A stretch of 59,842 nt of DNA, taken from the NCBI GenBank assembly GCA_964541395.1, contig CAZIPM010000003.1, positions 24,655 through 84,496 of the forward strand, given 5' to 3'. The stretch comes from an uncultured Gammaproteobacteria bacterium (GTDB taxonomy: Bacteria; Patescibacteriota; Microgenomatia; UBA8517). This document shows positions 5,718-59,628 of this stretch, in pieces (the first letter of the stretch is position 1; each line of letters starts with the position of its first letter). The notes under the pieces are model-generated. The model ran no database searches. It was not told the DNA's origin and saw only the letters and a program-made list of their open reading frames with translations. The position numbers were made by a program, and so were the translations under genes.

Positions 5718-5718
5718 A

Positions 5719-44229: not shown

Positions 44230-45345
44230 ATGATAATTAACAGGAAGATTGAGCCTGCTATAATAAATAGACTTTTTCAAGGAAAAGTTATAGTAATCTA
44301 TGGTCCAAGGAGATCAGGTAAAACTACTTTAGTCAAAAATATTCAAGGAATGTATCATTCGGAAAGTATATATTTAAACTGTGACGAACCTGACATACGC
44401 CAAGCTTTAACAGATAAAACATCTACTGAACTTATAAATTATGTCGGTAAGAATAGACTGGTAATAATTGACGAGGCTCAGAGAGTTAAAAATATCGGAA
44501 TTACACTAAAACTTCTGGTGGATAATTTTCCGCAAACTCAAATTATAGCCACAGGCTCCTCATCTCTTGACCTTTCAAATAAAATAAATGAACCTTTAAC
44601 GGGACGTGTACTTGACTTTTTCCTACCTCCTTTTTCACTTAAAGAGATATCTGAAGATAAAATTGAAGCTATAAGAAATCTTGAACAAAGAATGATCTAT
44701 GGAAGTTACCCTGAAGTAGTGATGGATATCAAAAATGCGGAAGAAAATATTAGAGAAATATTTAAAAAATATCTTTACAAAGATGTATTAGAATATCAAG
44801 GGATTAAAAATCCCGATGTACTGGAGAAACTTTTAACAGCTTTGGCTCTTCAGATCGGATGTGAAGTTTCTTATCCTGAGCTTGCAACGCTTCTCCAGAT
44901 TGATCAAAAAACTGTAGCTTCGTATGTACGACTTCTTGAATTTGCATTTATTATTTTCAGATTACCTCCACTTTCCAGAAACCTCCGTAAAGAAATTGCC
45001 AAATCAAGAAAGATATATTTCTGGGATTTAGGCATTCGAAATGCAGCAATAAATAACTTTAATTTGTTGGAAATGAGATCAGATGTTGGAAACTTGTGGG
45101 AAAGTTTTTTAGTCTCAGAAAGAATGAAAACAAACCAAATCCTAAGAAAGTTTCCAAATAAATATTTCTGGAGAACTTGGAGTAAAGAAGAAATTGATTA
45201 TATTGAAGAAGAAGGTGGAACTTTTAGTGCTTTTGAAATTAAATGGTCAAAATCAAACAAAAAACCATCAAAAGTGTGGACTGATGCATATCCAAATTCA
45301 GATTGGAAAGTAATTACAAAAGAAAACTTTTTAGATTTTATTTGA
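44230..45345 (+). CDS. AAA+ ATPase with DUF4143/PD-(D/E)xK-like C-terminus (COG1373 type)
   Basis: 371 aa. Walker A IYGPRRSGKTT, Walker B LVIIDEAQ, C-terminal EIDYIEEEGGTFSAFEIKW. Its 3' end overlaps the convergent exosortase gene by 15 nt. Confidence 0.85.
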   Translation: MIINRKIEPAIINRLFQGKVIVIYGPRRSGKTTLVKNIQGMYHSESIYLNCDEPDIRQALTDKTSTELINYVGKNRLVIIDEAQRVKNIGITLKLLVDNFPQTQIIATGSSSLDLSNKINEPLTGRVLDFFLPPFSLKEISEDKIEAIRNLEQRMIYGSYPEVVMDIKNAEENIREIFKKYLYKDVLEYQGIKNPDVLEKLLTALALQIGCEVSYPELATLLQIDQKTVASYVRLLEFAFIIFRLPPLSRNLRKEIAKSRKIYFWDLGIRNAAINNFNLLEMRSDVGNLWESFLVSERMKTNQILRKFPNKYFWRTWSKEEIDYIEEEGGTFSAFEIKWSKSNKKPSKVWTDAYPNSDWKVITKENFLDFI

Positions 45346-45921
45346 ATTTTTGTAGTCAATAAATTTTTCATCCAGAACATAAGTATAGCTAAACCACCAG
45401 AATGTGATCAGCCAAATAAGTGTTAGAAATGCAGCAAAGTAGTCATGAATTATCTGAGCTGCAAGCGAATTGATGTAATAAATTCCTATGGCTATAATAC
45501 TCATCCTGAAAATGTTAAGAAGAAGTGTTCCAAAAAGACCCAGTGCTACACACTTTGCTCTAGATAGATTAGTATAGTTACCTTTAAGACCAGCAACCAA
45601 AGAAACAATGAGAAGCAAAGCTGACTGCCAACCCAAACAGTTCCAAGACAGATCAACAGGTATACTTGTCCCTTTCTTAATCATATAGAAGGTTGAAAGC
45701 CTGGAGTTGGGAGTTACCCTTGAATCAATACCAAATGGAGAAATGGCAACTGCCACCATTCTTGCCTGCCAAGGAACTATATACTTTTGAATCGGACGCC
45801 ACCAACCTGCATGATTTAACCCTTCCGTAAAAAAAGAATTCATTGCAGCAAAAACAGGAAGAAGTGTCATGACAATTACAAATCCAGCCAAAATAGTTTT
45901 GAATGTTTTCTTTTGTTCCAT
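45331..45921 (-). CDS. Minimal exosortase/archaeosortase-family protein (putative transpeptidase for giant 3 and probably giant 2)
   Basis: 196 aa with about 5 TM segments. Motifs: WNCLGWQS (CxGxxS), LLNIFRM (NxxR), IHDY (His). It shares PIQ..IVP, C[IL]GWQS, NIFR and IWL..FWW with the 28318..28884 product. Its start lies 3 nt after the giant 3 stop. Confidence 0.65.
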   Translation of the reverse strand: MEQKKTFKTILAGFVIVMTLLPVFAAMNSFFTEGLNHAGWWRPIQKYIVPWQARMVAVAISPFGIDSRVTPNSRLSTFYMIKKGTSIPVDLSWNCLGWQSALLLIVSLVAGLKGNYTNLSRAKCVALGLFGTLLLNIFRMSIIAIGIYYINSLAAQIIHDYFAAFLTLIWLITFWWFSYTYVLDEKFIDYKNSNKI

Positions 45922-45924
45922 AAC

Positions 45925-48900
45925 TTATAGTACTGCTTTCTTTTTCTTCTTTATTCTTTTAATCAGTTTATTAAACAAAGGATAAAGACCAAGAAGTAGT
46001 AGTGGATTTTCAGGAACAGTTGTAAATTCCGGAACTACTGTATATGTTTCAAGAACCGAGTTATCAGATCTAACTACTCTTAAGCAGTAAGTGGTATTGT
46101 CTGCTGCTGCATTATCTTCAATAGTAAAGTCCCATTTACCATCTTCCCCTGCTCCAATTATAGCTTGTGAATTAGTAAAGTTGTTTGCTTCTTCATATGT
46201 CTGATTTCTATTTGTATGACCATGCGTGGGATCATTGGTATTATTGGTTAGTGCTGCGCCGTCAGTAACTCCACCTCCGTTATTATCAAAGTATCTAATG
46301 TTTCCGGATGAGGGAGATAAATCGGAATATGATTCGTCGGTAGTTCCCATATTAGTGTCACATGTTCCTCCAACTTTGGAGGCAATTTGAATTTTAAAGT
46401 TATCACCCGATGATGCTAATTGGCTTCCTCCTATATGGAGCTGTAATCTCATTCTGATGACCTGACCATCTGATGTCATCCCAGCAGCGGTATCTTGGTT
46501 GGCAAGTACGGCACCGACATCTGTAGAATTGTTGTTATAAAAAAATCGGTAAGTAGATAAATCATAATAAGTAACTACTTTTTCATCATAACGAGCAAAA
46601 CCCGTTGCACCGGCGGACCCGTCGTCCCAAACATAACCAACAACTTTCGCGCTACCGTTACCGGCACTATGGGTAAACAACTGCGCCCGGAGCCAATCGG
46701 CTCCATTCGTCGGATCTTTTTCCTGAACATCCGTAGTCCAGCTCCCGGATACCCGGGTATCGTAATAGATATCATCGGCATCCGTACTATTAGCAAACAA
46801 CGCATGGAGCTTGTCTGTTGCATCATCCGCCGCGATGTCTGCTATCGGTTCTCCGTTTTGTCCCTCCTGAAACTGTATCGCCGCGTCGCTGACCACGGTT
46901 TCGGAGGGAGACGGTGTATCTCCTATCGCCCAGGTGGAAATGTATAATTTGTTGTCATCGATATCCCTGTACGAAACACCAACCCGTTCCGTGGCTCCAT
47001 CTGTCCAATTGATAAGCGGCGTGAGATCCGCATAATCGCTAGACGTGCTCATGTTGGCGGTAGAGGGGCCATTGATGAGTACCCGTCCGTTGAGCACATC
47101 GCCGGTGGTAAGTGTTTTGACATATATATTGAGTTTACTGCTTGCCATGGCGGTATAGACGATATGGATCCTGTCGGTTGAGTCCCGTATCACGGCAGCT
47201 GCTAAGGTATCGGTCGATGCCGTGGAATCCAGGCGGATCGGAGCCGCCCACGTCCCTCCGGAAGAGCGGATGCTGTACCAGAGCTGTTCATTGGACCCCG
47301 ATAATGCACCCCGGTAAACAGCAATCGTGGTACCGTCACCCCGCCGCACAATTGCGGCTTGCTGCGCGCCAGGGCTCACATCTTCGATCAATTGGTCATT
47401 CACTGCCCAGGTATCCGGGGTCGTAGCATGGGTGGAAACGTTGAACTCATAGTAATTAGCCGAATCACTGTTGTTCGGGCCCTGCATGGTAATATAGAGC
47501 GTATTCCCCCGCAGATCCATATCCGCAGCTTCCAGATCGAACTCCTGGGAAGCAGTGGAAACCCCGACCGGGTTCCATGAGTCCCCGCCGTCCGTTGACT
47601 TCATCATCGCCGGACTGTTGCTGCCGCTGCCGGTTTGGATATCTGTATACTCGGACAGATAATAGAGATTTTTGTTGCCGTCGACAGCAAAGTAGCGCAT
47701 CGGCGTTTCCATTACCGATCCGCCGATATGGCCGACTCTATTGGAAATCGTGACCGTCGGCGTTTGACTGTAGGTCGTGAGTATCCCACCACCAGAGCGG
47801 CGGAGCCGGAATTTATAGGTCGTCCCATCGGCATTGTGCCCCTGCTCTTCGTAGAGTTTGCGCATCAGGACCGGAAATTCGTATTCCGTATGTGAGGGGT
47901 CTGTAAAGGATACCGACGCTGCCTGATAATCTTCACTCCCGGTTCCGGCGATAAAAGTTGCAGCACTTTGGGACAGCAGGTTAGTTGTGGCCGCGCCATC
48001 GACAAACTGCGCAGACGGGATAACCTGCGCCCCCCATTGCCCGCTGGTGGAACCCGCTGCCCAGGGGGTTGCATTATCCGGACCCCGCCGATAGTCGCCG
48101 TCATTTCTCGAGTACCATAACTCAAACCCTGAAGCGAGTGCGCCGCCGCTGGGGCGTTCGACTTCGAGGCGGATACGGAAATCGTAATCCGGATTGATAC
48201 TTGCGTTTGAATTAAGCGTATTTGCCCAGTCTGCATCGGCATTGGCACTGAGCGCCTTACTGTCATCCGCCCGGATCCGGAACGCGGTCTGAGAAAACGT
48301 CGGGGTCGAGGTGCCGTTCATCCGTATTTCCGCACCCAGTCCGATCCAGTTGGCGCTCGTCGGCGACCAGCTGGCACTGCCGGTTGTTTCGAATGCATCA
48401 CCTCGGTATTGCGTTTCCAACGCCTTGCCCGGATTGGATGTAGCCAGATCATCAAGCTCTGTCCAGTTAGTCCGGAATGTCGTTGCTTCATTGACAGGAT
48501 GGGCAAAGGCGGAAATTGGCCGGTTGTTGGAATCCTGAGCTGAAGCAAAAGGGATCGACCCGCTGGTTGCGGCTGTACCGGTAGCCCGGGCCAGCTGCAC
48601 AAACGCTCCAGAGACGCCGTTTGTTAAATCGACTCCGGAAACGGAAAAAAAGCTCGCAGCCAGTCCGGCCTGCGTAAAGTTCCCGAAATCAAACGTAACC
48701 GTACCATTTTGGGATCCGCTTGCCGCGGCGGCATACAAAAACAACCGTTCCCGATCGAGATATACTTCGTCGATAAGCGTATACGTAATGTTCTGTGTAT
48801 TGGTCACGGTGGGAACCGGTGGACGTTTAGAGGTCGGCGCATGCGCCAGAACAAATACGATAACCATGCCGGAAGTCGGCGGGGTCCAGGCACTGGATTC

Positions 48901-51900
48901 ATACGTCTTGGAATCAGTGCCGGTGTTGATGTCCCCGCTCTGATTGGTAAAAGCCAATGCATTAGTACTCACTGTAAATGTTGGTGTGGCTACAATTTGA
49001 CTTGCTCCGACAAGAGCTGTTGCGGGAATAGTTGCAGTTATAGTTTCCTGAGCGGTTATATTATAAGAAGCAAAAGCGTCAAGTGTAATAGTTACCACAG
49101 TATCACTTGTCCGGGCGACATTTGCTACACTGATATTATTTTTTACGATAGTATCCCAGCCGGTTCCTTCAGATTGAGCTGAGTCTAAACCGGATCTAAT
49201 TTCATCCCGTTGATTATCAAATGTTGATCCGGATGCGACCCAGGTGGTTCCTGTTAGGGTCAGAATAACTGTCTTACCCCCGGTGACGATATCTGATTCA
49301 GCTATACTCGCTGTCACCGTTCCGGTAAGCGCAGCTGTTGGTTCATAAATTGCTGCCAAAATTGTAATTGGGTTTGTATTTGTCCAACCGGTCGACGTAA
49401 CAGTGTCAGAAGTAAGAGTCGCAATACGTGTTTGCACATGTGTGGCTATATTAATATCGAGAGCTCCTGTAGTTGAAGTTATTGTATCAATCCTCTCGGT
49501 ATAGTCTGCATCAGCCGCCTTGGCTGCATCTTCTCCTTCTGATGCCGCAGCTCCAATAAGTAAATACTCACGGGATGGAAGTGAAGAAACTGAAGCTGAT
49601 ATTGCAGCTTGTCCTACTCCGACTTGTTCAATAGCCCAACCTGTACCGTTACCGAAAGTTGCTTCAAAAACCGAAATAATTTTATCGACTTTGGCTGTGC
49701 CCAAAGTCAATGTTATTGAGTCGGTGGTATCGATCTGAGTTGTGACCTTTGTCGCAAACAATCCTACAGTTGAACCATCATCTGCTGCTCCATCTGTTTC
49801 TGTATACTCAGCAATTCTGGTCCAGGTATGCCCGTCTGTATCGGAAATTGAATGCAGTGTACTTGCACCGTCTGCTGTCTGATTATTGTCTGAGGCAGTA
49901 GCAACAAATGCTATTTTACCGACTGTGATATTGGCATCGGGAGATACTGCTACAGTCGTACCGCTTGCATCGTTTGTGTCAGCAAATCCACGGACAGTTA
50001 CGGCTGAAATGGTGGCTTTTGCTTCTTCAATTTTAGGTGGAAATCTGGGCTTATTCCAAAAAACAGGATAGCCTGATAATAACCAGGAAGCAATTAGACA
50101 AGACACAACCACTAATTTAATTGCCCTCTTGAATGTTCTTTTGTTTCTTCTGGCTAAAAATATTAAGGCAGACAATGTAAATATAACGACTAAAGCCAGA
50201 GAAACTTTCAGAGTCTCCATTGAAACCTGTTTGACCCCACTGACAACTATTTTTTGTACTTTGTCCGCACTGGCCAGAACTTCAGTCGGTGAGAATAAAT
50301 TTAACAAAGAAGCCGTAAAATTGCCTTCATCTCCAACCCTTTCTACTCTGGTTTGAATAGGAAGGTCTGCTATTGATCCAGTCTTTATGGTGCTACCCAG
50401 ATATGAAAGTAATATCGATGATAATACTGAGATTATTACAACGAAATTACCAATCAGGCTGTATTTTTTGGGCATAATTTTAAAGGAATCAAATTTACTG
50501 TTGGCTGTTGTTAAAGCTAAGTATTTATAGTCCTCCTTCAGTTCTCCATTAGAACCAATTGGTTTAACCGGCAAGATGCCTGAAATGAAGCGGTAAAATC
50601 TACCTCTGGCAAAGATGTCAGTAATTCTTCCTGTTTTTGGAGTTCTGAACCAAGGACCTTCTTCTTTTTCGATAAATCCTTTAACTGCTGCATATGCCTG
50701 GAAAGGTACTATTATATAGGAGAGGGCCATAAAGCTGCCCAGTCCCAGATAGTCTCTTTCATCCGACTCCTCCAAAAATAACCCTACGGAGTTAAGAAGA
50801 GGAAGAGAAATCATGTTGGTTAAAACCAAGCTCCATCCCCAAAGCTCGGTCCAGAAAGGCAAACGCACTTTAAAGATGGTTTCCGAAATTAACCAGGATA
50901 GAGTTCCTACCATAAAAAACAAGGCTTGAAGGTAATATGGAGTTAAATAGACAAACTCAAATTTCTCAGCTTTGCTAAGATTGGGATTAGTCAAAAGTTT
51001 GCTAAACATCTTTCTGACATTAAAAGAGTGCCCTTCTGCCCAACGCATTCTTTGTCTGATCAGTCTCTTAAGTGTAGAAGCACATTCAGCGGGTGCCTGG
51101 ATATATGGAGTGTAAATTACTTTGTAACCTGCATCATATAATCTTAGGGTCAGTTCAAAGTCCTCTGTAATAGAAGTCCCCCATCCCAGTTCTTCCAGTA
51201 CATCCTTTTTGATCATATAAACGGAACCTGATATTTGTTTTAATCCTCCATAAATTTCAGCACCCGATCTTTCTATGACATAACTTCCTGCATACTCCGA
51301 TCTGACTCCCCTGGTTATCCAGTTTTCAGATTTATTAAGAACATGCCACTGGTAGCCCTGAACAGCCGCTGCTCTTGGATCATTCTGTGCCTGGAAGTAT
51401 TTCAAAAACAAAGTCAGTGAATCAGGGTAAGGCACAAAATCAGCGTCGAATATCGATACTTTTTCGGTTCTGGGATCAGATAATTTTAAGGCCAAATTTA
51501 AAGCGCCACCTTTATAACCGGATCTTGAAGATCTATGAAGATGTTTCAGGGTTACTCCCGGCTTAACTTCAACTTCTGTCAGTGTATACCCCTCCCCTTT
51601 AGTAATTTTCATTTTTTCTCCCTCAAACAAATACCTTTTCATCCTGGTTTGAATAATTTGGGTAGTCTCATCTGTTGAATCATCACACAAAATAACTTCA
51701 TAGGCAGGATAGTCAAACGAAACAGCTGCATGGATGGATCTTTCCACAACATTCTTTTCGTTATAGAAAGGAATCTGGACCGAAATAAAAGGTTTTTTGG
51801 TAAGCTTGATATGAGAAAGATCAGCGGTCAAACCAACAGATGTCTCATTTCCTGTTTTATTCTTTTTAATCAGCCAATCAAGCATGCCACCCGATGCCTG

Positions 51901-52632
51901 ATCAATAATTTTTCCTTCTGTCTCCTTCTGTGAGAATGACAAAACCAAGGCCAAAGTAAAATAATACTTTAAAGAATAAAGGAAGAAGAACGAACCCATT
52001 ACCAATGCCGTTAAGGCAAATGTAATTCCTATTTTATAACCCAGACCACTTCCCGCAGCGTCTCCGTATGCATAACTGCCGATTCCGGCTATTACAATAG
52101 TAGTAAAGAGACTGAGGCTGAATATTGAAAACAATTTGATATAAATATGCCTTTTTTCCGCCGGTATTTTGAAGAAGTCGGAAACTGATACCAGGATTTT
52201 TTCGATAAAGCCGACAACCTGAGTATGTTGACCTGTGGCATATGCCTGTCTTGATTCATAAAGTGAAAGGTTGTGCCTCCTTAAGACGTTCTGTACTCCA
52301 TGATGTCCCACAATTGGCGAGTTTCCTATCTTGGGAAGGTTTTTAACCAGAGTCCTGATGCCCCATTCGGGATGTTGTGAAACCAATGAAAGTATTGATT
52401 CTTCATACTTATCCGGGGTTTGATGCCAATACCTATCAATTATTCTTTCTCTATTAACAAGTTCTGCTTCACCACTAGTCTTTTGTTCTTCTTCCCTCCT
52501 TTTGAGCCACTTATAGATGGTCACCCTACTTACACCATACTTTTTGGCAACTTCAGAGATACTTTGCTTCTGATCTAATACCTCAGAAATCATTAAATTT
52601 CTGGCTTTTGGTGACAGTTCGTTTGGTACCAT
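45925..52632 (-). CDS. Giant 3: fusion of IS481-like HTH module-TM-processive GT2 synthase-TM-ectodomain-VPENP C-terminal sorting signal
   Basis: 2235 aa.
- HTH module at aa 1-130: YGVSRVTIYKWLKRREE ... PEWGIRTLVKNLP ... HGVQNVLRRHNL.
- GT2 at aa 280-535 (nt 51028-51795): CDDSTDE, IFDADF, SITEDFE, RQRMRWAEGH.
- Extra TM pair as in giant 2.
- Asp-box KSTDGGDSW (47575-47601).
- C-terminus TVPENP-LLLLGLYPLF-NKLIKRIKKKKKAVL. Confidence 0.88.
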   Translation of the reverse strand: MVPNELSPKARNLMISEVLDQKQSISEVAKKYGVSRVTIYKWLKRREEEQKTSGEAELVNRERIIDRYWHQTPDKYEESILSLVSQHPEWGIRTLVKNLPKIGNSPIVGHHGVQNVLRRHNLSLYESRQAYATGQHTQVVGFIEKILVSVSDFFKIPAEKRHIYIKLFSIFSLSLFTTIVIAGIGSYAYGDAAGSGLGYKIGITFALTALVMGSFFFLYSLKYYFTLALVLSFSQKETEGKIIDQASGGMLDWLIKKNKTGNETSVGLTADLSHIKLTKKPFISVQIPFYNEKNVVERSIHAAVSFDYPAYEVILCDDSTDETTQIIQTRMKRYLFEGEKMKITKGEGYTLTEVEVKPGVTLKHLHRSSRSGYKGGALNLALKLSDPRTEKVSIFDADFVPYPDSLTLFLKYFQAQNDPRAAAVQGYQWHVLNKSENWITRGVRSEYAGSYVIERSGAEIYGGLKQISGSVYMIKKDVLEELGWGTSITEDFELTLRLYDAGYKVIYTPYIQAPAECASTLKRLIRQRMRWAEGHSFNVRKMFSKLLTNPNLSKAEKFEFVYLTPYYLQALFFMVGTLSWLISETIFKVRLPFWTELWGWSLVLTNMISLPLLNSVGLFLEESDERDYLGLGSFMALSYIIVPFQAYAAVKGFIEKEEGPWFRTPKTGRITDIFARGRFYRFISGILPVKPIGSNGELKEDYKYLALTTANSKFDSFKIMPKKYSLIGNFVVIISVLSSILLSYLGSTIKTGSIADLPIQTRVERVGDEGNFTASLLNLFSPTEVLASADKVQKIVVSGVKQVSMETLKVSLALVVIFTLSALIFLARRNKRTFKRAIKLVVVSCLIASWLLSGYPVFWNKPRFPPKIEEAKATISAVTVRGFADTNDASGTTVAVSPDANITVGKIAFVATASDNNQTADGASTLHSISDTDGHTWTRIAEYTETDGAADDGSTVGLFATKVTTQIDTTDSITLTLGTAKVDKIISVFEATFGNGTGWAIEQVGVGQAAISASVSSLPSREYLLIGAAASEGEDAAKAADADYTERIDTITSTTGALDINIATHVQTRIATLTSDTVTSTGWTNTNPITILAAIYEPTAALTGTVTASIAESDIVTGGKTVILTLTGTTWVASGSTFDNQRDEIRSGLDSAQSEGTGWDTIVKNNISVANVARTSDTVVTITLDAFASYNITAQETITATIPATALVGASQIVATPTFTVSTNALAFTNQSGDINTGTDSKTYESSAWTPPTSGMVIVFVLAHAPTSKRPPVPTVTNTQNITYTLIDEVYLDRERLFLYAAAASGSQNGTVTFDFGNFTQAGLAASFFSVSGVDLTNGVSGAFVQLARATGTAATSGSIPFASAQDSNNRPISAFAHPVNEATTFRTNWTELDDLATSNPGKALETQYRGDAFETTGSASWSPTSANWIGLGAEIRMNGTSTPTFSQTAFRIRADDSKALSANADADWANTLNSNASINPDYDFRIRLEVERPSGGALASGFELWYSRNDGDYRRGPDNATPWAAGSTSGQWGAQVIPSAQFVDGAATTNLLSQSAATFIAGTGSEDYQAASVSFTDPSHTEYEFPVLMRKLYEEQGHNADGTTYKFRLRRSGGGILTTYSQTPTVTISNRVGHIGGSVMETPMRYFAVDGNKNLYYLSEYTDIQTGSGSNSPAMMKSTDGGDSWNPVGVSTASQEFDLEAADMDLRGNTLYITMQGPNNSDSANYYEFNVSTHATTPDTWAVNDQLIEDVSPGAQQAAIVRRGDGTTIAVYRGALSGSNEQLWYSIRSSGGTWAAPIRLDSTASTDTLAAAVIRDSTDRIHIVYTAMASSKLNIYVKTLTTGDVLNGRVLINGPSTANMSTSSDYADLTPLINWTDGATERVGVSYRDIDDNKLYISTWAIGDTPSPSETVVSDAAIQFQEGQNGEPIADIAADDATDKLHALFANSTDADDIYYDTRVSGSWTTDVQEKDPTNGADWLRAQLFTHSAGNGSAKVVGYVWDDGSAGATGFARYDEKVVTYYDLSTYRFFYNNNSTDVGAVLANQDTAAGMTSDGQVIRMRLQLHIGGSQLASSGDNFKIQIASKVGGTCDTNMGTTDESYSDLSPSSGNIRYFDNNGGGVTDGAALTNNTNDPTHGHTNRNQTYEEANNFTNSQAIIGAGEDGKWDFTIEDNAAADNTTYCLRVVRSDNSVLETYTVVPEFTTVPENPLLLLGLYPLFNKLIKRIKKKKKAVL
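45928..46020 (-). other. C-terminal tripartite sorting signal of giant 3
   Basis: VPEFTTVPENP LLLLGLYPLF NKLIKRIKKKKKAVL, read from the translation. Confidence 0.6.
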
Positions 52633-52646
52633 GGCAGTCTTAATAT

Positions 52647-52675
52647 ATCGTGCTTAAAATGAGTGTAAATGTCAA
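52647..52675 (-). promoter_or_regulatory. Candidate promoter of giant 3
   Basis: Minus strand: TTGACA (52670-52675), 17 nt, CACGAT (52647-52652), 14 nt, ATG (52632). The -10 is weak. A better TATATT lies 5 nt closer to the ATG, but its spacer is 22 nt. Confidence 0.3.
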
Positions 52676-52886
52676 GTGGGTAACGGCCTTTTGTGGCCAT
52701 TTCCATGAAATTTATATAAAATGACATATTAAGAATATTCACACCTATAGGACATCCACAGGAGAACTACTTTGCTGTTGATACGGGTTCTGCTGTCATT
52801 TGAGTTAATTATCAATGACGAATAAATAATGCAAACCTTTTTTAAAATTTGAATAATTTAACAATTACGAGTAAAAAATAATGAAG

Positions 52887-54218
52887 CTACTTGATCTTGT
52901 AGAGTATATCCCCATTTTTTTCCCAGACTTTGTCTCCCAATTTGCTCCATTTAAAGGAATTTCTGAAGTCATGGTAGTACTCCCAAGAAGTATTGGTATG
53001 CACCAGCATATATTCGATGCCTGTTTTGTCTAACCAGATCTTTGTTTCCGTCAGACCGGATCCTTCCCTAAATTCATAGGCAGCTTTATCCCATATCGGA
53101 TCTAATGCCACCTGATCTCTACCTCCCCTTAATTGTTTTATATCAAAATAACTATTAGCCCAAAACACGCTAGAACCTGAAAGGAATACTTTCCTGTCAC
53201 CAACCACCTGATAAACGGAGGATAATGTATCTTTTAGATTGTAATCGTTTGAGTACAAAAAGCTGAGCCTGTAGACCGTATAAATTGGAAGAACAAATAA
53301 TGATAAGAACTTTTTGTTTACCAGAAAAAGAAGTAACAGTGCTATTTCCAATTCATAAAAATAAATACTCCAATCCATAAAAAAGTCCATATCACCCACA
53401 AACCGGAATAAAGTTAAAAACAGAAAACTGAAAACCCAGGTATAAGTAAATTTTTCCAAGTTGGTTAAGATTTTTTTCTGCCATAATACGGCAACAATAG
53501 CCAAGGCTACCGGTAAACCTTCCCTGACGTAAGACAGAAGCCTCAGAATCGCTTTCAGACCTGATGTACCCCCTACTGAGGGGTTGGTTAGGATGGCAAT
53601 CCAATATCCTGGGGTATACCAAATTGTGACAAATGCTAAAGAATATAAAACCAGGCTAAGATAACTTTTCAGATATTTAAATTTCTCTGCGGCGGAAACC
53701 GCCAAAAGACCTATCAAAACAAACGGCAACACTGATGTATTGATTAAAAGTAGCATGGATAACAAAGTGAAGGACAGGTATTTTTTCTTCAGGTAAAATA
53801 CCCAGAAAACAAAAGGAATTAGGTTTCTGGCAATCACCAAAGTTGCCTCCCCGTAAGTTAAGGCGTAAAACATCCTCCAGGGAAGTAAAATTGCAATTAT
53901 GATAAATAAAACTTTAGTTACTTTTTTGATATTCGGATTTAATGAAACAACCAAATAGTACCAGCCTATAACAGAAAGCAAAAAACTTAATACTATTAAA
54001 CAGATCGTAATATTAATAAACGATACATCTCCCAATAGATATTTTATTAGAACCTCAACCACAGGCACAATCGGTCCAATAAAGAATTTAAAGGGTGTTG
54101 TTCCGTTATACCAATACGGGTAATTGGAGATAAATGCAGAGATACCGTTCTCATATAGATAACGTGTCAGTGCTGCTGTCACCGGAATGAATGAAGTTTG
54201 ACTTAAAAATGTTTCCAA
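52887..54218 (-). CDS. Polytopic membrane protein (hypothetical; possibly GT-C-like) with a soluble C-terminal domain
   Basis: 443 aa. It has a TTG start and no nearby in-frame ATG. The motif NYPYWYNGTTPFKFFIGPIVPVV is reminiscent of the PFWYP..GGG proteins at the left end. It has about 10 hydrophobic segments. Confidence 0.65.
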   Translation of the reverse strand: METFLSQTSFIPVTAALTRYLYENGISAFISNYPYWYNGTTPFKFFIGPIVPVVEVLIKYLLGDVSFINITICLIVLSFLLSVIGWYYLVVSLNPNIKKVTKVLFIIIAILLPWRMFYALTYGEATLVIARNLIPFVFWVFYLKKKYLSFTLLSMLLLINTSVLPFVLIGLLAVSAAEKFKYLKSYLSLVLYSLAFVTIWYTPGYWIAILTNPSVGGTSGLKAILRLLSYVREGLPVALAIVAVLWQKKILTNLEKFTYTWVFSFLFLTLFRFVGDMDFFMDWSIYFYELEIALLLLFLVNKKFLSLFVLPIYTVYRLSFLYSNDYNLKDTLSSVYQVVGDRKVFLSGSSVFWANSYFDIKQLRGGRDQVALDPIWDKAAYEFREGSGLTETKIWLDKTGIEYMLVHTNTSWEYYHDFRNSFKWSKLGDKVWEKNGDILYKIK

Positions 54219-54260: not shown

Positions 54261-55091
54261 TTAGAATACCAAGAACAGGGAGAATAGTATAGCCATTATG
54301 CCTATACCCATACCGGCTACTACCGGTAACGAAACACCTGTTTCTGGGATTGGTGGATTTGTAGGTGCAGTTGTCGCTCCTGCAGTTGTAGACGTTGCAG
54401 TTGCGGTTGTTTTAATGGTTGATGTAGAGGTTGCAGTTGCTTTTGCGGTAGACGTTCCCTTTGATGTCGCCGTGGCGGTTGCCTTTGAAGTTGAGGTTGC
54501 GGTTGCTGTGGCCTTTGATGTCGCGGTGGCGGTTGGACCTGTTCCCGATCCACCCGTTACCGTAACACTTGCCCCGGTCTTATTGACCACCACGTTAACA
54601 CCTTCTTGTGTGGCTGCTGCAGATGTTTCAGGACCAAATGCAAATTGGTATTGTCCATTGCCAGAAGTGGAGACTATATTCCCGGTAATGGTCAGGATAT
54701 TAACACTTCCGTTTATTGCGGTAGTTTTGTCTAAGTTAAGTACAGCATAACGTATCTTACCGCCTGTATTGTCCACCTGACTGGTAATGACGGTTGTGAA
54801 ATTAGCCAAAGATGATGTGGGTTGAATTTTACTAATCTGAAAAACAGCAGGATTAAAGGTCAGGTCCAGATCAACTGCTGTGACATAATTTGCCCCAGTG
54901 TCCATTTTTACATTCAAAGTGAATGGTTGACCGGCTTGAATACTCTGGGTTCCGGGGATTAACGATAAGTTGGTGGCAGGAGCAGCTCTCTCCCTAAGTT
55001 CCTGATTTCTTTGAACCAATAATATCCCTGCAATCATGCCTGCAGCCAAGACGACAACTCCTATAATTGAAAAAAGCAGTTTCTTATTCAT
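54261..55091 (-). CDS. Surface protein: signal anchor, cohesin-like beta-sandwich, Thr/Ala/Ser-rich linker, IPETG-type C-terminal sorting signal
   Basis: 276 aa. Cohesin-like region: LSLIPGTQSIQAGQPFTLNVKMDTGANYVTAVDLDLTFNPAVFQIS...IRYAVLNL. Linker at aa 186-243: (T/A/S/K)n. C-terminus: PIPETG-VSLPVVAGMGIGIMAILFSLFLVF. Confidence 0.75.
   Translation of the reverse strand: MNKKLLFSIIGVVVLAAGMIAGILLVQRNQELRERAAPATNLSLIPGTQSIQAGQPFTLNVKMDTGANYVTAVDLDLTFNPAVFQISKIQPTSSLANFTTVITSQVDNTGGKIRYAVLNLDKTTAINGSVNILTITGNIVSTSGNGQYQFAFGPETSAAATQEGVNVVVNKTGASVTVTGGSGTGPTATATSKATATATSTSKATATATSKGTSTAKATATSTSTIKTTATATSTTAGATTAPTNPPIPETGVSLPVVAGMGIGIMAILFSLFLVF
54363..54536 (-). repeat. Low-complexity coding repeat (TATATSK-like units) forming the linker of the cohesin-like protein
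   Basis: PTATATSKATATATSTSKATATATSKGTSTAKATATSTSTIKTTATATSTTAGATT. At the DNA level this is reiterated gcngtngc-type triplets, which also create spurious ORFs in other frames. Confidence 0.8.
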
Positions 55092-55741: not shown

Positions 55742-57106
55742 TTATAAATCAAGCTCAAAAATAATCGCCGAATTGGGAGTCATGTAGATAGTACTTTCCC
55801 AGGTGTTATCGGGTAAATTAAGATCGGTTGTAGATGTAGATCCCAAAAAATCATACCTGGTTAATTTTCCGCTACTTCCGGGTAAATTAGTCAGCTTTAC
55901 CGGAACCGATTCGTTATGACGTCCCGAATGGTCATAATTGACCAAAAGAAGTTGAATTTTGCTATCCTTCCTTTTGGCCACGGCCTTGACCCAGGAACCA
56001 TTTCCCTCGACAGTTAAATTTTGTGAATCAGAAAGTTTGTTTAAAAATTGTAAAGCCCTGTAGCGAGGTTTTTCCTCGGGAGTTCCATATTTCTCATGGG
56101 TCATCATCCCCCACCTGCCCCAGTTTTTGGAGTCGCCGGGACCGTCTTTGATTTCAAAAGTAAACAATTTATCTACATACCCTTCCATTAATGCGGTAGT
56201 TGCAATTGTATGAAATGCAGAAAAGCTAGAGTCATAGACAGTGTCATTTTCATTGTTTGGTCCTATCTCGGAAATAATAAGTTCATATCCCTGATATCTT
56301 TGAGCATTCTCAAGATCTGCTTCATAATCTGACAACTTCTTGGAGTATTTATGCCAACTTAAAAAATCCAATCTGACGTTTTGAGTTTGACTGTATTCCA
56401 AAAGTTTATTCAACCAATTCTCGTAAAACCCTGTTGTAGCCGGTCCTCCTATTTTAAATTCATTAACATTCCTTGCTTTTTCTGCTGCTAATACGCTTTG
56501 AGTATAGAGAGTTAAATAATCCTTTTTACCCCTTATCTTAAAATCTCCGAATAAATCCGGTTCATTCCAAACTTCATAGTAAACATCTTTGATGTTAAAT
56601 CCATTTCTTCCGCTTAGATGTTCAACCGTTGTAGTCACTGTTTTTTGCCAATCGTTCCAATCCAAGGGATAGTCTGTAACATTTCCTGAAGAAATAACTG
56701 GTGGCATATATGATAAAGATATAAACGGTTTTGCACCTGTTTTGATGATGTCCGAAATGGTTTGATCCAGATTAACCCAGTTAAATATAAGGTTACCGCT
56801 ACCGTCTTTACTGACCAGATCATATGAGTCGAAGACGTGGTCTAGACGAATATACTTGGGTTTTAAAACGGATATTTTATCTGTGACTGAAGACAACATT
56901 CTTCCTTTCTCTTCTCCTCCCTGTGCCAAATTGTGCCAGGAATCTGTTTTTTGTATAACACTAATATTGTTTAGATCAACTACTATACTGGCGTTAGTAC
57001 CAAAGGCTTTTTGAAAAAATTCGGTTTTTTGACTAATGAGAAAAATTCCGACAGGTAAGGCAAAAACCAAAACAACTAATGACAATATATTTTTAAACTT
57101 CTTCAC
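55742..57106 (-). CDS. Secreted or anchored glycoside hydrolase, clan GH-A (GH39/GH5-like)
   Basis: 454 aa with a GTG start. N-terminal anchor: ILSLVVLVFALPVGIFLI. YYEVWNEPDLF is the acid/base Glu motif of clan GH-A. LIISEIGPNN is a candidate nucleophile Glu. Confidence 0.7.
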   Translation of the reverse strand: MKKFKNILSLVVLVFALPVGIFLISQKTEFFQKAFGTNASIVVDLNNISVIQKTDSWHNLAQGGEEKGRMLSSVTDKISVLKPKYIRLDHVFDSYDLVSKDGSGNLIFNWVNLDQTISDIIKTGAKPFISLSYMPPVISSGNVTDYPLDWNDWQKTVTTTVEHLSGRNGFNIKDVYYEVWNEPDLFGDFKIRGKKDYLTLYTQSVLAAEKARNVNEFKIGGPATTGFYENWLNKLLEYSQTQNVRLDFLSWHKYSKKLSDYEADLENAQRYQGYELIISEIGPNNENDTVYDSSFSAFHTIATTALMEGYVDKLFTFEIKDGPGDSKNWGRWGMMTHEKYGTPEEKPRYRALQFLNKLSDSQNLTVEGNGSWVKAVAKRKDSKIQLLLVNYDHSGRHNESVPVKLTNLPGSSGKLTRYDFLGSTSTTDLNLPDNTWESTIYMTPNSAIIFELDL

Positions 57107-57110
57107 AGAA

Positions 57111-58193
57111 CTATCTTAACACAGACAATGGATTGAATTTAACACCGTTTTTGGAAACTTCAAAATGTAGATGCGTTCCTGTAGACCTTCCTGTTGATCC
57201 CATCTTTCCTAATCCGGTACCTCTTGAAACTGACTGTCCAACTGATACATAAAGTGTGGACATGTGAGCATAAAGTGTTGTGTAACCATTACCATGGTCT
57301 AAAATAACATGACATCCATATCCCCAAGACAAACAGCCTGCATAAATGACTTTACCGGAGTCGGCTGCTAAAACATTGGGGGTTGCACGGTTGGCGATAT
57401 CGAGACCGGGATGATACCAAACAAAGTTTTGGGAGATTGTTCCGCTTGCAGGCCAGACAAAATTACCTGATGCAACAACCGATCCTGCATCCGGAGTAAT
57501 TCTTTGTATTCTGGGTGAAATAATCGTAGCTGAAGGTTTTGCACCTTCAGGAACTACAACATTTTGACCAATAGCCAATTCAAAAGTTTCATCATTTGAA
57601 AATGTATTAAAAGGAAAATCGACGATTGACTGGGCGTTACTGTCGTATTTTTTAGCTATAGAATAGACTGTGTCCCCCTTTTGAACTTTGTGAGCGATTC
57701 CTGTAACAGGAAGTATTTCTAAAGTCTGACCGTCTTTTATTTTGTCCCCAGTAATATTATTTTGCCACTTAACGGTTTCTGTTGAAACTCCAAATTTTTT
57801 GGCAACTCCCGCTATGGTATCTCCTTCTTCAACTTTATACTCAATAATTTTATCTCTGACTTTATCTGATATTAAAGTATCAAATTCAGGTGAAGTAGTG
57901 GTTGCTGAGAGTACTTCCGTACTACTTTCTATTTCCCAGGGGTTAACCGATCTTCCGGGAAATTCCTGAGCAATAACAGGGGCAATCATCATCCCTAAGC
58001 CGGTTAATCCTGCCATTCCTGTGTGGATTAATTGTCTGGCTTTTCTTCCCCTTTGTTTATAAAGTGCAGAAACAAAAACTCCTTTACCTTCTTCAAAACG
58101 GACAAAGGAAAGATGCAGTTTTTTGGTTATAAATATACCTAACTCTGTTAAAAACAGTTTAAATTCACTTACAAAATTTAAAATTTCTTCCAT
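57111..58193 (-). CDS. LysM-domain M23 family metallopeptidase
   Basis: 360 aa. Two LysM domains: YKVEEGDTIAGVAKKFGVSTETVKWQNNI and HKVQKGDTVYSIAKKYDSNAQSIVDFP. M23 motifs: HPGLDIA, GYGCHVILDHGNGYTTLYAHMS, GSTGRSTGTHLHFEV. Confidence 0.9.
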   Translation of the reverse strand: MEEILNFVSEFKLFLTELGIFITKKLHLSFVRFEEGKGVFVSALYKQRGRKARQLIHTGMAGLTGLGMMIAPVIAQEFPGRSVNPWEIESSTEVLSATTTSPEFDTLISDKVRDKIIEYKVEEGDTIAGVAKKFGVSTETVKWQNNITGDKIKDGQTLEILPVTGIAHKVQKGDTVYSIAKKYDSNAQSIVDFPFNTFSNDETFELAIGQNVVVPEGAKPSATIISPRIQRITPDAGSVVASGNFVWPASGTISQNFVWYHPGLDIANRATPNVLAADSGKVIYAGCLSWGYGCHVILDHGNGYTTLYAHMSTLYVSVGQSVSRGTGLGKMGSTGRSTGTHLHFEVSKNGVKFNPLSVLR

Positions 58194-58311: not shown

Positions 58312-59628
58312 TTAAACAGTATTCAAGGAGTCCAGAAACTCATCAATTCTTTCTAAAAGATAAAACGGCAAAGACAAAATCTTATATTTTTTACCACCAT
58401 AATTATATTCTTCAATTCCAAATGAGTCCCAAGAAACACGCACAGGAAAAACTTTGTCCCCTCCTATATCGATCATGCTAAATAAAGATTTTAAATTTTT
58501 GGTATTTCCTGATTTTACTTCGATACCCACTATTTTATCTTTATGTTGAAAACAAAAATCTACTTCTGCGCTCCCCTCATCTTTATTTCTTGACCAATAA
58601 ACTAATTCTTCACTTCTTCTTAAGCCTTTTGAAATCAAAATTTGACCTACTGATTGCTCCATTATTCTGCCTTTATATTCACCTTTTAAAATCTCAATAC
58701 TTATTCGGTTAATAAAATTAACAATTCCAACATCAAGCCAAATCATTTTCTTGGCTCTTTTAAATTTGTTAATAAAAGGTAAATTAATTGAGTTTATGGA
58801 AGGAATTTCTTTTAAGAGCATTACTTTTTGTAACATATTAATAGCTTCGCCAATTTCACGGCTCTTATATTCTGAGCCTCCAAAATTTTCATATTTATAA
58901 ACCCCTCCCGCAATTTTAGGGCCAAAATCCATAACTAATTCTAAATATTTTTTATTGGATGTAGTTGAATATTTGTCTAAATCTTCTTTATAAGATAAGA
59001 TTAATCTACTATGGATATCTTGTACTTTAATAAAACTATTATCCTTTACGAAACTTGAAACAGCTTCAGGCATACCACCGACCAATAAATAATTTTTGAA
59101 ATGATTTATTAACAAATCATGAGTTACCCTAAAATTATTTTTCTCTATAAATCTTTCTTGACCATGTGCTTGTAAAAATTCAAAAAAGGTCATTGGATAT
59201 AAATACATATACTCAACTCTTCCTACAGGAACACTCCATTTGCCTGCCATTTTAGCTTCAAGTAAGGACCCCGCAACAATTAAATGTAAATTAGGCTTAT
59301 CCTCTGCAAAAAATCTTAACAATTTTAAGGCTTCCAACGATTCTTGAATTTCATCTATAAAAAGGAGCGTTTTACCTTCTACAACAATTTCGTTTGTCAA
59401 AATTTCTGATCTTCTAATAAATTCTGAAACAGTATCAGCCCCTTCAAGAAATCTCTTTTGAGCTGATTGCTCAAGATTAATTTCAATTAAATTATCAAAA
59501 TTCTCTTCTGCAAATTTTCTCACAACTGATGTCTTTCCAACTTGTCTTGCTCCAGGCAATATTAATGGTTTTCGAATTGAAGATGTTTTCCATGCTTTGA
59601 GCTCATTTTCTATATTTCTTGTAAGCAT
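58312..59628 (-). CDS. AAA+ ATPase with DUF4143/PD-(D/E)xK-like C-terminus (COG1373 type)
   Basis: 438 aa. Walker A LPGARQVGKTS, Walker B LLFIDEIQ, C-terminal AEVDFCFQHKDKIVGIEVKS. Confidence 0.85.
   Translation of the reverse strand: MLTRNIENELKAWKTSSIRKPLILPGARQVGKTSVVRKFAEENFDNLIEINLEQSAQKRFLEGADTVSEFIRRSEILTNEIVVEGKTLLFIDEIQESLEALKLLRFFAEDKPNLHLIVAGSLLEAKMAGKWSVPVGRVEYMYLYPMTFFEFLQAHGQERFIEKNNFRVTHDLLINHFKNYLLVGGMPEAVSSFVKDNSFIKVQDIHSRLILSYKEDLDKYSTTSNKKYLELVMDFGPKIAGGVYKYENFGGSEYKSREIGEAINMLQKVMLLKEIPSINSINLPFINKFKRAKKMIWLDVGIVNFINRISIEILKGEYKGRIMEQSVGQILISKGLRRSEELVYWSRNKDEGSAEVDFCFQHKDKIVGIEVKSGNTKNLKSLFSMIDIGGDKVFPVRVSWDSFGIEEYNYGGKKYKILSLPFYLLERIDEFLDSLNTV

Follow-up and report, generated by a model that had tools for sequence, protein, structure and literature searches.

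Three giant proteins encoded by an uncultivated Patescibacteria bacterium (Microgenomatia; UBA8517) appear to start with sequence-specific DNA-binding domains of IS481 descent, which are fused through TM helices to a GT2 synthase and would autoregulate their own genes through a conserved promoter box. We assign this reading a probability of roughly 60%. Each protein begins with a transposase-type HTH module and each gene has a matching conserved box in its promoter, so the giants probably control their own genes. The window, meaning the whole 59,842-nt stretch of contig CAZIPM010000003.1 analyzed here, contains all three (G1, G2, and G3, Table 1). The G3 reading frame runs from the HTH module through a TM pair, the GT2 synthase, and a large extracellular region to a C-terminal sorting signal. 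We searched the literature for this HTH–GT2 fusion and found no paper describing it.

Table 1. Positions and supporting evidence of the features discussed in the text
Feature	Position (nt)	Strand	Evidence or remark
G1 ORF	28881–35291	−	TTG-started as called
G2 ORF	37578–44000	−	2140 aa
G3 ORF	45925–52632	−	2235 aa
G1 tandem modules	34350–35111	−	distal 34773–35111, proximal 34350–34736
G2 tandem modules	43287–44000	−	distal aa 1–116, proximal aa 118–238
G3 IS481-like bipartite HTH module	52228–52632	−	aa 1–135; Pfam, NCBIfam, module HMM, AF2
G3 HTH1	~52477–52611	−	within module
G3 HTH2 and small hairpin	~52276–52413	−	within module
G3 amphipathic linker helix, TM1, and TM2 (predicted)	51919–52221	−	aa 138–238; hydropathy, AF2
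G3 processive GT2 catalytic core	50887–51786	−	aa 283–582; DDxxD, DxD, TED, QRMRW
G1 promoter, class-A box TTGACA-ACA-GTACCCATGAAAAGTAACAAT	35145–35174	−	ends 15 nt before ATG at 35129
G2 promoter TTGACT-N16-TGACAAT with degenerate W-type box	44016–44044	−	compared with L015/L082
G3 promoter box GTTACCCACTTGACATTTACAC	52663–52684	−	class-B type
MerR-family (HspR-like) gene, divergent from G1	35802–36107	+	MerR_1 E = 8.5e-13 (Pfam); HspR 74 bits, cutoff 105
Exosortase/archaeosortase-family gene, directly downstream of G3	45331–45921	−	TIGR04178 31.1 bits, cutoff 23
Second exosortase/archaeosortase-family gene, overlapping the G1 stop	28318–28884	−	TIGR04178 36.4 bits

The N-terminal module and the synthase behind it

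The original prediction recognized in the G3 N-terminus the two-HTH layout of IS481 transposases, and every peptide string that it quoted is found in the sequence. Pfam places HTH_28, HTH_23, and HTH_Tnp_1 above their gathering cutoffs at residues 7–63 of G3, and HTH_32 below its cutoff at residues 38–116. The NCBIfam model of IS481 transposases (NF033577, transpos_IS481) aligns its positions 2–113 of 284 with residues 11–128 of G3 (E = 8.9e-16; 58 bits, full-length cutoff 224) and finds two stretches each in G2 (E = 2.6e-18) and G1 (E = 9.5e-13). The matched stretch is exactly the precatalytic region of IS481 transposases. Genuine plasmid IS481 transposases, our comparison set, align end to end with a module HMM built in this analysis (positions 7–124, 42–70 bits), and their N-terminal two-HTH region is 30–36% identical to the module. 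The presumed absence of a DDE core also holds: Pfam detects no rve in any giant even at E ≤ 1, and the NF033577 match ends at model position 113. These comparisons confirm at the sequence level that the module is homologous to the N-terminal two-HTH part of IS481-type transposases, from which it would descend, and that the catalytic core is missing. Annotation of these proteins as transposases should be avoided.

AF2 models the module with a pLDDT of 93 (91–98 over residues 1–135 of G3), and the model suggests a paired/Tc3-like bipartite DNA-binding domain. The top Foldseek matches are Pax6 (6pax), Tc3 (1u78), and Pax5 (1k78), with probabilities of 0.98–0.99 but weak E-values of 0.07–0.3 and TM-scores of 0.45–0.58; DNA complexes of CENP-B and SETMAR are also among the best structural matches, and the E-values of the matches to DNA-binding domains are weak throughout (0.07–0.7). 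A PDB sequence search with residues 1–138 of G3 gave insignificant matches alone (best E = 0.07). When representatives were searched with the module profile for non-fused relatives, the best 150 matches were all tandem-module family proteins or fragments thereof.

Copy number was counted with the same module HMM. It finds a single module in G3 (aa 2–135) and two each in G2 and G1 (aa 61–173 and 186–314 of the TTG-started G1 ORF), in agreement with the tandem copies that had been placed at 34362–35129 and 43296–44000. Two modules are also the usual state among relatives. The distal module of G2 is weaker, has lost W42, and appears degraded; the proximal one carries the variant HTH2 helix SSWTIWKIM, and the G1 HTH2 helix reads GNHGVQNVL.

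The module–GT2 architecture recurs in hundreds of Patescibacteria proteins, mostly of Microgenomates, from independent assemblies. Species-representative genomes contain 268 relatives, and the architecture is widespread in Microgenomates. All 115 anchored homolog N-termini hold at least one module, beginning at the very start of the ORF. Residue R128 is invariant, residues S35, R36, P88, L117, and L122 are conserved to at least 90% in both alignments, and W42 to at least 90% in alignment A2. In the pairs compared, pN lies far below pS, which points to purifying selection; synonymous sites are saturated in all pairs but one, so the comparison yields pN << pS and no dN/dS. One of the pairs (L021/L087) is a single sequence present in two collections. 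Together with the family scans, the alignment to IS481 transposases, and the predicted fold, this conservation bears out the description of a domesticated DNA-binding module.

The module might instead have lost its DNA binding and regulate the synthase or interact with other proteins in the cytoplasm, comparable to PilZ of BcsA, or serve as an oligomerization device. It occupies the spot where other processive synthases have regulatory domains, in most pairs it has diverged more rapidly than the GT2 core (38–63% versus 64–76% amino acid identity), and its structural matches to DNA-binding domains carry the weak E-values given above. We nevertheless consider this quite improbable. The best conserved module positions are the recognition-helix signatures SRxTFYKW and HGVQNxLxR, the modules are very basic (mean net charge +11.6, or about +12 per module), and a promoter box matching the module exists. 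Moreover, where the module is replaced by a nonhomologous domain, the replacement is a DNA-binding HTH and not a signaling domain: GT2 relatives without the module have a MerR/HTH_17-type HTH, fused in L073 and, in L074, L075, and L081, encoded by a very small gene of its own that stops at the GT2 start.

Another concern is that the HTH region may lie outside the translated or mature protein, either because translation starts downstream or because a decaying transposase remnant was joined to the synthase by chance fusion or assembly error. No Shine–Dalgarno sequence is evident ahead of the G3 ATG at 52632, and the degraded look of the distal G2 module would fit such a remnant. Yet hundreds of independent assemblies show the identical in-frame architecture, the module begins within a few codons after the upstream stop in nearly all relatives, it shows the signs of purifying selection described above, and it is directly preceded by a conserved promoter. 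A start just before the first TM helix had been named as an observation that would speak against the module; G3 has no methionine between residues 14 and 212 and hence no ATG just ahead of TM1. We regard this explanation as very improbable. For G1, the start is most likely the ATG at 35129; a further in-frame ATG at 35159 falls within the promoter box.

Two TM helices separate the module from GT2, so both domains are predicted to lie on the cytoplasmic side. According to the model (AF2 helices 138–155, 158–191, and 197–238 in G3), TM1 and TM2 would anchor the module to the membrane and bring the chain back to the cytoplasm. Residues G213, F216, Y219, S220, Y223, and Y224 in this region are invariant. 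The GT2 core scores above the Pfam cutoffs of GT2 families (Glyco_trans_2_3, E = 1.6e-19), and D318, D321, D396, D398, T489-E490-D491, and Q527-R528-M529-R530-W531 are invariant. An AF2 model of the GT domain with the adjoining channel-forming TM helices (pLDDT 83) retrieves BcsA (E = 2.4e-14), PcManGT (target-normalized TM-score 0.74), and hyaluronan synthases in Foldseek. The core scores far below the threshold of every NCBIfam equivalog, including PgaC/IcaA, CelA, and NodC (88.8 bits versus 422 for PgaC, 79 versus 699 for CelA). The giants look like BcsA/HAS-like processive membrane GT2 synthases outside the named equivalogs.

At their C-termini, the giants carry VPENP or VPEK followed by a hydrophobic stretch and a run of K/R (VPENP, TM, and KKKKK in G3). 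Of 40 complete homologs, at least 22 carry this signal too. The exosortase-family gene next to G3, which has homologs in 39 of 76 related loci, presumably processes this VPEN signal.

A promoter box that varies with the HTH2 helix

AT-rich upstream regions had been put forward as targets of the module. A candidate site does lie upstream of each giant, but it is a discrete box of about 22–30 bp (degenerate in G2) and not AT-rich DNA generally. The family box reads TTGACA-N3-4-GT(T)ACCCA-N7-8-TAACA(A/T)T. The combination of TTGACA-N15-19-TAACA with an ACCCA-type core is present in 44 of 56 upstream regions, and since the box spans −35 and −10, some of its conservation simply reflects that of the promoter. 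A recognizable box is missing in about 15–20% of family members. In 860 kb of related loci, scanned on both strands, we found 54 strict matches; an HTH-GT2 ORF directly follows 43 of them and, as inspection showed, about five more. Hence, the box occurs almost only before HTH-GT2 genes in these 0.86 Mb. The −10-like hexamers most common after TTGACA (TAACAT, AACAAT, AACACT) come largely from HTH-GT2 promoters; other promoters look TAnAAT-like.

The 3′ TTTACA of the G3 box doubles as the −35 element of a predicted promoter, TTTACA-N16-TATATT (52642–52669). A single-module homolog (locus L117) has a near-identical 22-mer upstream, within flanks that differ from those of G3 (compared by eye). The degenerate G2 box has ATTGGATAG where the W-type has GTTAGGATGG. 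A search for a third box in the window hit only a site with three mismatches inside the G2 coding region (39661–39679), which we take as a chance match. The idea that the box is a simple palindrome was also dropped, the GT(T)ACC/GGTAAC symmetry being merely imperfect, and this imperfection makes the orientation relative to the IS481 repeat ambiguous. No correlation was seen between box class and module number. An Rfam scan of the window gave zero matches, so the long leaders and intergenic regions hold no known RNA element.

We compared the proximal HTH2 helix of each protein with the box of the same gene. The HGVQN recognition helix goes with a ..CCCA.. box (GTTCCCATGG), and the [WFY]T[IV]W helix with a ..GTTAGnATGG.. 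box. Of 11 genes with the [WFY]T[IV]W helix, 8 have the GTTAGnATG box (10 after two clipped start calls were corrected), which is found in 0 of 93 other genes. GT(T)ACCCA accompanies the H[GA]xQ helix in 47 of 56 cases, and GTTCCCAT the H[GA]x[YF] helix in 7 of 13. Cross-combinations were not seen among the genes compared, and a separate metagenome set, partly overlapping the first, shows the same pairing. Paralogs of different helix/box types share one genome, this window included. Fisher's test returns p = 6e-10, a value that is not phylogenetically corrected, as the co-variation rests on a few subfamily splits; helix and promoter could each simply have been inherited.

These observations bear on the possibility that the modules bind DNA while something else recognizes the box, for instance the divergent MerR/HspR-like protein or a dedicated sigma factor, and that the modules serve, for example, to tether the nucleoid or DNA entering the cell to the membrane beside the synthase. 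A MerR-family gene is present on the opposite strand in the flanks of 15 of 76 HTH-GT2 loci, including G1, and where worked out it lies mostly just upstream and divergent. The 19-bp spacers of class-B promoters are a hallmark of MerR-activated promoters, and a chain with two to four HTHs and a very high positive charge could equally well anchor DNA with low specificity. However, most loci without an adjoining MerR gene still have the box. W-type and Y-type genes have no clear MerR neighbor (one weak match, E = 9.5e-5, in L015) yet possess their own box variants. Box variants follow the HTH2 helix of the adjoining gene and differ between paralogs of one genome, which is not what a common trans factor would produce, and the box resembles the type of site expected for an IS481 DNA-binding domain. 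We therefore judged the MerR/HspR-like neighbor less likely than the module as the box binder, and regard a separate reader of the box as unlikely overall.

IS481 ends and a possible mode of autoregulation

The inner region of the inverted repeats of most insertion sequences is where the transposase binds, and IS481 ends begin with TGT (bioRxiv 10.1101/2022.12.17.520857). Six IS481-family elements examined here share (GTA)CCGGrGACATGGnnnACAC(T), several of them at both ends, and the left copy lies about 25–40 nt ahead of the transposase ATG where the start is known. A single pattern joining box and IS481 ends, which was composed after both sets had been seen, has nine matches in 2.3 Mb: three IS481 left ends and six class-A promoters, the G1 box among them. 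Twenty shuffles gave one match in total. The promoter box is similar in sequence to the subterminal repeat at the ends of genuine IS481 elements and may derive from an inverted repeat. The original prediction that terminal inverted repeats are absent is right in that no credible flanking pair exists around G3 (45500–53000), but one IS481-end-like box seems to survive in the promoter.

Autoregulation, initially offered as a mere possibility, gains specific, if indirect, support from the family-specific box, its co-variation with the helix, and its likeness to IS481 ends. The target would be a box of about 22–30 bp within the gene's own sigma-70-type promoter, between and overlapping −35 and −10, and the regulation would most likely be repression by promoter occlusion. 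In a chain of over 2000 residues, the HTH would exit the ribosome first, and the nascent domain could reach its promoter in cis during ongoing transcription. Transposases, too, reach their own ends in cis. Once inserted, the protein would keep the bound locus at the membrane. We infer binding, the sign of regulation, and the cis or co-translational action from the features described above.

Given the likeness of the box to the subterminal, transposase-binding repeat of IS481 ends, domestication probably took in the whole left end, comprising an inverted repeat with its promoter and the DNA-binding part of the transposase gene. This left end would have been turned into a membrane-tethered autoregulator. 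In its fullest form, this scenario holds that the captured end became a cis-acting autoregulatory cassette, which was duplicated and diversified into orthogonal helix/operator pairs, each paralog sensing only its own promoter, binding co-translationally, and holding its locus at the site of membrane insertion. We advance this full version tentatively, as somewhat less likely to be true than false.

Comparison with known systems

Like IS481 transposases, the giants contain a complete N-terminal two-HTH region, and their box is similar to the subterminal repeat that closely precedes the transposase gene. Unlike them, the giants lack a DDE/rve core, a second end, and mobility; their domain has been tandemly duplicated, carries an extra invariant helix after HTH2 (YExRxAYA, R128), and is followed by TM helices and a glycosyltransferase. 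The Pax paired domain, CENP-B, and SETMAR have a bipartite HTH-linker-HTH fold that the module may share, and SETMAR still recognizes the inverted repeats of its ancestral transposon. In contrast to the giants, these proteins derive from Tc1/mariner/pogo elements and are soluble proteins of eukaryotic nuclei. If confirmed, the giants would represent a rare case in bacteria of a transposase DNA-binding domain and its cognate site being domesticated jointly, and the paralog-specific helix/box pairs would be a candidate natural set of orthogonal protein–DNA pairs.

PutA, BirA, and NadR are trigger enzymes that combine enzyme and repressor in one protein; they are soluble or peripheral and use RHH or winged-helix domains. 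The giants would likewise unite catalysis and predicted sequence-specific DNA binding on one polypeptide, a route for coupling enzyme state or abundance to transcription. To our knowledge, none of the three is an integral-membrane polysaccharide synthase or has a transposase-derived domain. The predicted cytoplasmic, membrane-anchored DNA-binding domain is reminiscent of ToxR, CadC, TcpP, and Vibrio ChiS/TfoS. ChiS/TfoS regulate a promoter from the membrane and bring the locus to it (PMC11856585), as the giants would do. Whereas those regulators combine OmpR-type, AraC-type, or other domains with periplasmic sensors, the domain of the giants is transposase-derived, is joined to a polytopic enzyme bearing a giant surface region, and has its own gene as proposed target. 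If confirmed, the giants would be integral-membrane "trigger enzymes" and a novel kind of membrane-tethered regulator.

The genomes of Patescibacteria (CPR) are tiny and encode few recognizable regulators, and we know of almost nothing on how these bacteria control their envelope. A surface-polymer enzyme with its own transcription factor is a candidate regulatory device that would be widespread in Microgenomates. With BcsA, PgaC, hyaluronan synthase, and PcManGT, the giants share a GT-A core (D, DxD, TED, QxxRW) followed by channel-forming TM helices. Like BcsA with its PilZ domain, they have a cytoplasmic accessory domain joined to the enzyme, but it is N-terminal and predicted to be of the DNA-binding type instead of a c-di-GMP receptor. 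Unlike all four synthases, the giants continue for about 1500 extracellular residues to an exosortase sorting signal. This motif-TM-basic signal, together with the exosortase-family gene, matches the layout of exosortase/PEP-CTERM-like sorting systems.

IS481-like modules on three membrane synthases

The three giant genes of the window (G1, G2 and G3) encode one or two N-terminal two-HTH modules, a TM pair and a GT2 synthase core. A Pfam scan of G3 returned HTH_28, HTH_23 and HTH_Tnp_1 at residues 7–63, all three exceeding their gathering scores, a sub-threshold HTH_32 match at residues 38–116 and GT2 families at residues 283–582. Positions 2–113 of 284 in the NCBIfam IS481 transposase model, which is precisely the stretch preceding the catalytic core, align to residues 11–128 (E 8.9e-16); G2 and G1 match this model twice each. 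Plasmid genes annotated as IS481-family transposases share 30–36% identity with the module (tblastn), and four of them align end to end (positions 7–124) with a module HMM that we built. These observations confirm the original prediction of an IS481-like N-terminus. They also support the predicted absence of a DDE core, since no rve domain was found in G3 by the Pfam scan and the NCBIfam alignment ends at position 113. After the module, the transposases continue into the DDE core, whereas the giants continue into a short conserved helix (YExRxAYA, with R128 invariant), followed by a second module or by an amphipathic helix and two TM helices. According to the module HMM, G3 carries one module, and G2 and G1 carry two in tandem where these had been anticipated.

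Searching with residues 1–693 of G3 gave 875 proteins (E ≤ 1e-5). Of the best 120, nearly all span the full query, HTH included, and the named proteins among them come mostly from Patescibacteria, above all Woese-, Gottesman-, Curtiss- and Daviesbacteria. The best match (72% identity) bears the automatic JGI name 'cellulose synthase/PNAG synthase-like glycosyltransferase/transposase'. Species-representative genomes contain 268 relatives, some with other-phylum titles that are probably binning or labelling errors. The module profile recovered 321 clusters (50% identity) at E ≤ 1e-30, and the best 150 are all tandem-module proteins with a TM/GT2 continuation, or truncated fragments thereof. Since only 17 of 115 N-termini contain one module (about 98 contain two), G3 represents a minority form. 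'One and a half' module forms are also present, and ORF sizes range from 1150 to >3000 aa. A Chisholmbacteria homologue of >3100 aa (locus L030) has four module matches in a repeated half-plus-full pattern, which suggests that the N-terminal cassette underwent one more internal duplication.

Throughout the family, modules begin a few codons after the upstream stop, have a mean net charge of +11.6 and keep the recognition-helix signatures SRxTFYKWxKRY and HGVQNxLxR. In every pair open to comparison pN is far under pS, and G3 contains no Met between residues 14 and 212. It is therefore very unlikely that translation starts downstream of the HTH region, leaving it untranslated, or that the fusion is accidental.

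Hydropathy and an AlphaFold2 model of G3 residues 1–700 (mean pLDDT 83; HTH region 91–96) concur on two three-helix HTH units. The modelled helices span residues 8–19, 25–32 and 36–52, then 74–86, 92–98 and, after a hairpin, 110–119. Helices 125–134 and 138–155, TM helices 158–191 and 197–238, and a GT-A domain with more TM helices follow. Because two TM helices separate them, the module and the GT2 domain are placed on the same (cytoplasmic) side. The best PDB matches of this model are BcsA, PcManGT and hyaluronan synthases, and the DxD, TED and QRMRW motifs are invariant among 93 aligned relatives. Hence, the enzyme is a processive membrane glycan synthase, a class-level assignment, with scores far under every named equivalog in NCBIfam. 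The isolated module, modelled with 47 module sequences (pLDDT 93), best matches the paired domains of Pax6 and Pax5 and the bipartite domain of Tc3 transposase, all DNA-bound; CENP-B, SETMAR, TnsB and IstA come next. Probabilities reach 0.99, yet the E-values are weak (0.07–0.7). The predicted fold fits a bipartite domain reading about 20 bp, a structural match that is not conclusive by itself.

Features of the window and of related loci (locus-numbered positions refer to that locus)
Feature	Position	Strand	Remarks
G1	28881-35291	-	
G2	37578-44000	-	2140 aa
G3	45925-52632	-	2235 aa
G2 distal module	43653-44000	-	
PEP-CTERM-like C-termini (G3, G2, G1)	about 45925-46020, 37578-37670, 28881-28990	-	
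G1 class-A box	35145-35174	-	
G2 box	44016-44044	-	degenerate copy only
G3 box	52663-52684	-	GTTACCCACTTGACATTTACAC; TTTACA = -35 of TTTACA-N16-TATATT promoter
G3 CTGCC(C) motif	52633-52641	-	GACTGCCATG
Spacer	35130-35801		672 bp
MerR-family, HspR-like gene	35802-36107	+	HspR model 74 bits, cut-off 105
Exosortase/archaeosortase-family gene after G1	28318-28884	-	~190 aa; TIGR04178 above cut-off
Exosortase/archaeosortase-family gene after G3	45331-45921	-	~190 aa; TIGR04178 above cut-off
AAA_14/DUF4143 ATPase	36294-37421	-	
AAA_14/DUF4143 ATPase	44230-45345	+	
AAA_14/DUF4143 ATPase	58312-59628	-	
Polytopic membrane protein	52887-54218	-	443 aa; no Pfam or NCBIfam match
Cohesin-domain protein	54261-55091	-	
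GH39-like glycoside hydrolase	55742-57106	-	
LysM + M23 peptidase	57111-58193	-	
Four-module homologue	L030 5533-14922		
Fused MerR/HTH_17 HTH	L073 about 5419-6050		
Small MerR/HTH_17 HTH gene	L074 471-677		
Small MerR/HTH_17 HTH gene	L075 9844-10032		
Small MerR/HTH_17 HTH gene	L081 2-151		cut by locus start
Box of membrane-protein homologue	L077 about 3884		

The promoter box and IS481 ends

We compared the 300 nt preceding 56 family genes, of which three are G1, G2 and G3 and the other 53 come from related loci. In 44 of these regions, TTGACA is followed by 15–19 nt with GT(T)ACCCA or a variant, and then by TAACA(A/T)T. Class A boxes (TTGACAnnnGTACCCATGAAAGGTAACAAT) have a 16–17 spacer and end 5–20 nt before the ATG; class B boxes (TTGACAnnGTTACCCACTnnnTGTTAACAT) have a 19-bp spacer and leaders of 40–80 nt. 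The 22-mer of G3 recurs before a single-module homologue in L117 with different flanks. A strict-core pattern, searched on both strands of 860 kb, gave 54 matches. Forty-three directly precede an HTH-GT2 ORF, and about 5 more do likewise on inspection; one lies before a conserved partner gene, four lie 0.5–1.5 kb upstream of an HTH-GT2 gene and one is elsewhere. The commonest -10-like hexamers after TTGACA (TAACAT, AACAAT and AACACT) come largely from HTH-GT2 promoters, and other promoters in the scanned loci look TAnAAT-like. In many family members a CTGCC(C) motif directly precedes the start codon, at the expected Shine-Dalgarno position (G3, L006, L010, L011, L027, L038, L041, L055, L109 and L119).

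The distal module of G2 has lost the near-invariant Trp of HTH1 (YKCL vs YKWL) and scores far below the proximal module. Given this weak module and the degenerate box, the regulatory part of G2 may be decaying.

Inverted repeats were sought in six real IS481 elements from plasmids. All six contain (GTA)CCGGrGACATGGnnnACAC(T), inverted at both ends wherever both were captured and preceded by GTGAC(A/G) plus 4 nt. The left-end copy, sometimes doubled, lies about 25–40 nt before the transposase ATG. The pattern GTACC.{0,6}CATG.{0,5}GT[AT]ACA[CA]T has only 9 matches in 2.34 Mb, three of them at IS481 left ends and the other six in class-A HTH-GT2 promoters, that of G1 included; 20 shuffles gave one match in total. 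The class B box and the reverse complement of the IS481 repeat also have the ungapped core GTTACCCAT in common. Since the pattern was written after both sets had been seen, this sequence likeness between box and IS481 end is suggestive, not proven. It agrees with what generally holds for IS elements, whose transposases bind the inner part of the inverted repeat; IS481 ends begin with TGT (bioRxiv 10.1101/2022.12.17.520857).

Helix–box pairing and a proposed autoregulation

We sorted genes according to the HTH2 helix in their membrane-proximal module, added a second set, of 72 metagenome loci, and removed duplicates. The [WFY]T[IV]W helix (W or G2 type) occurs with a GTTAGnATG box in 8 of 11 genes, or in 10 of 11 after correcting two start calls that clipped the box, with G2 as the exception; none of 93 other genes has this box. 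H[GA]xQ helices pair with GT(T)ACCCA (47/56), and H[GA]x[YF] helices with GTTCCCAT (7/13). No cross-combination of helix and box type was seen in this grouped, de-duplicated set. As the co-variation comes down to a few subfamily splits, the evidence is weaker than the nominal Fisher p of 6e-10 implies. W-type and Y-type boxes have the frame TTGACAnnnGTTxxxATGGTnGGTAACA in common and differ mainly in three bases, AGN vs CCC. Several types coexist within single genomes (OY970314.1, MGFX01 and the source genome of the window, with GNHGVQN/class A for G1, GHHGVQN/class B for G3 and the W type for G2).

We propose that the module binds the box in the promoter of its own gene. Binding would most likely repress transcription, since the spacer is taken up by the box, which also overlaps the -10 element (in the G3 type, the -35); with the 19-bp spacers of class B, activation by DNA distortion would also be possible. 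Alternatively, the modules may bind DNA while another factor reads the box, for example the MerR/HspR-like gene product. Homologues of this gene occur on the opposite strand within HTH-GT2 gene flanks in 15 of 76 loci and, where worked out, are mostly just upstream and divergent. However, box variants that are specific to paralogues would be left unexplained if one trans factor read them all, and we consider this alternative unlikely. Because the HTH is made first in a very long chain, a self-regulating module could plausibly act in cis during coupled transcription and translation. Once the protein is inserted, its locus would be tethered to the membrane, as has been described for transmembrane regulators (PMC11856585).

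Five GT2 synthase relatives lack the IS481-like module, and no box was found before any of them. In L073, a MerR/HTH_17-type (excisionase-type) HTH is fused N-terminally, and in L074, L075 and L081 a small gene for such an HTH (~49–68 codons read) ends right at the GT2 start. That the substitute is again a DNA-binding domain, but a non-homologous one, argues for DNA binding as the function under selection at the synthase N-terminus; that the module is a regulatory domain of the synthase unrelated to DNA seems more improbable still than a separate box-reading factor.

On this proposal, HTH-GT2 synthases would stand alongside transmembrane regulators, trigger enzymes and domesticated transposase domains. 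Both halves are already labelled automatically in databases; our literature searches returned no account of the fusion, of the promoter box or of the IS481-end link.

Neighbouring genes

The MerR/HspR-like gene diverges from G1 across an unusually long AT-rich spacer, in which no Rfam family was found. All three giants end in VPEN/VPEK, a hydrophobic stretch and a K/R run, which together form a PEP-CTERM-like sorting signal. Exosortase/archaeosortase-family genes follow G3 and G1, with none after G2; such a partner is present in 39 of 76 loci, and the sorting signal in at least 22 of 40 complete homologues. Three AAA_14/DUF4143 ATPases interspersed with the giants match the PADLOC candidate defence family PDC-S01 (E 1e-135 to 1e-149). 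No homologue of these ATPases was found in the 76 related loci, which places them outside the synthase system. With its cohesin-domain, GH39-like and LysM + M23 genes as upstream neighbours, the region is rich in cell-surface and cell-wall functions. In 28 of 76 loci, a homologue of the polytopic membrane protein is conserved beside the HTH-GT2 gene on the same strand. The L077 homologue has its own copy of the box, which suggests that this membrane-protein gene could be another target of the same regulator.
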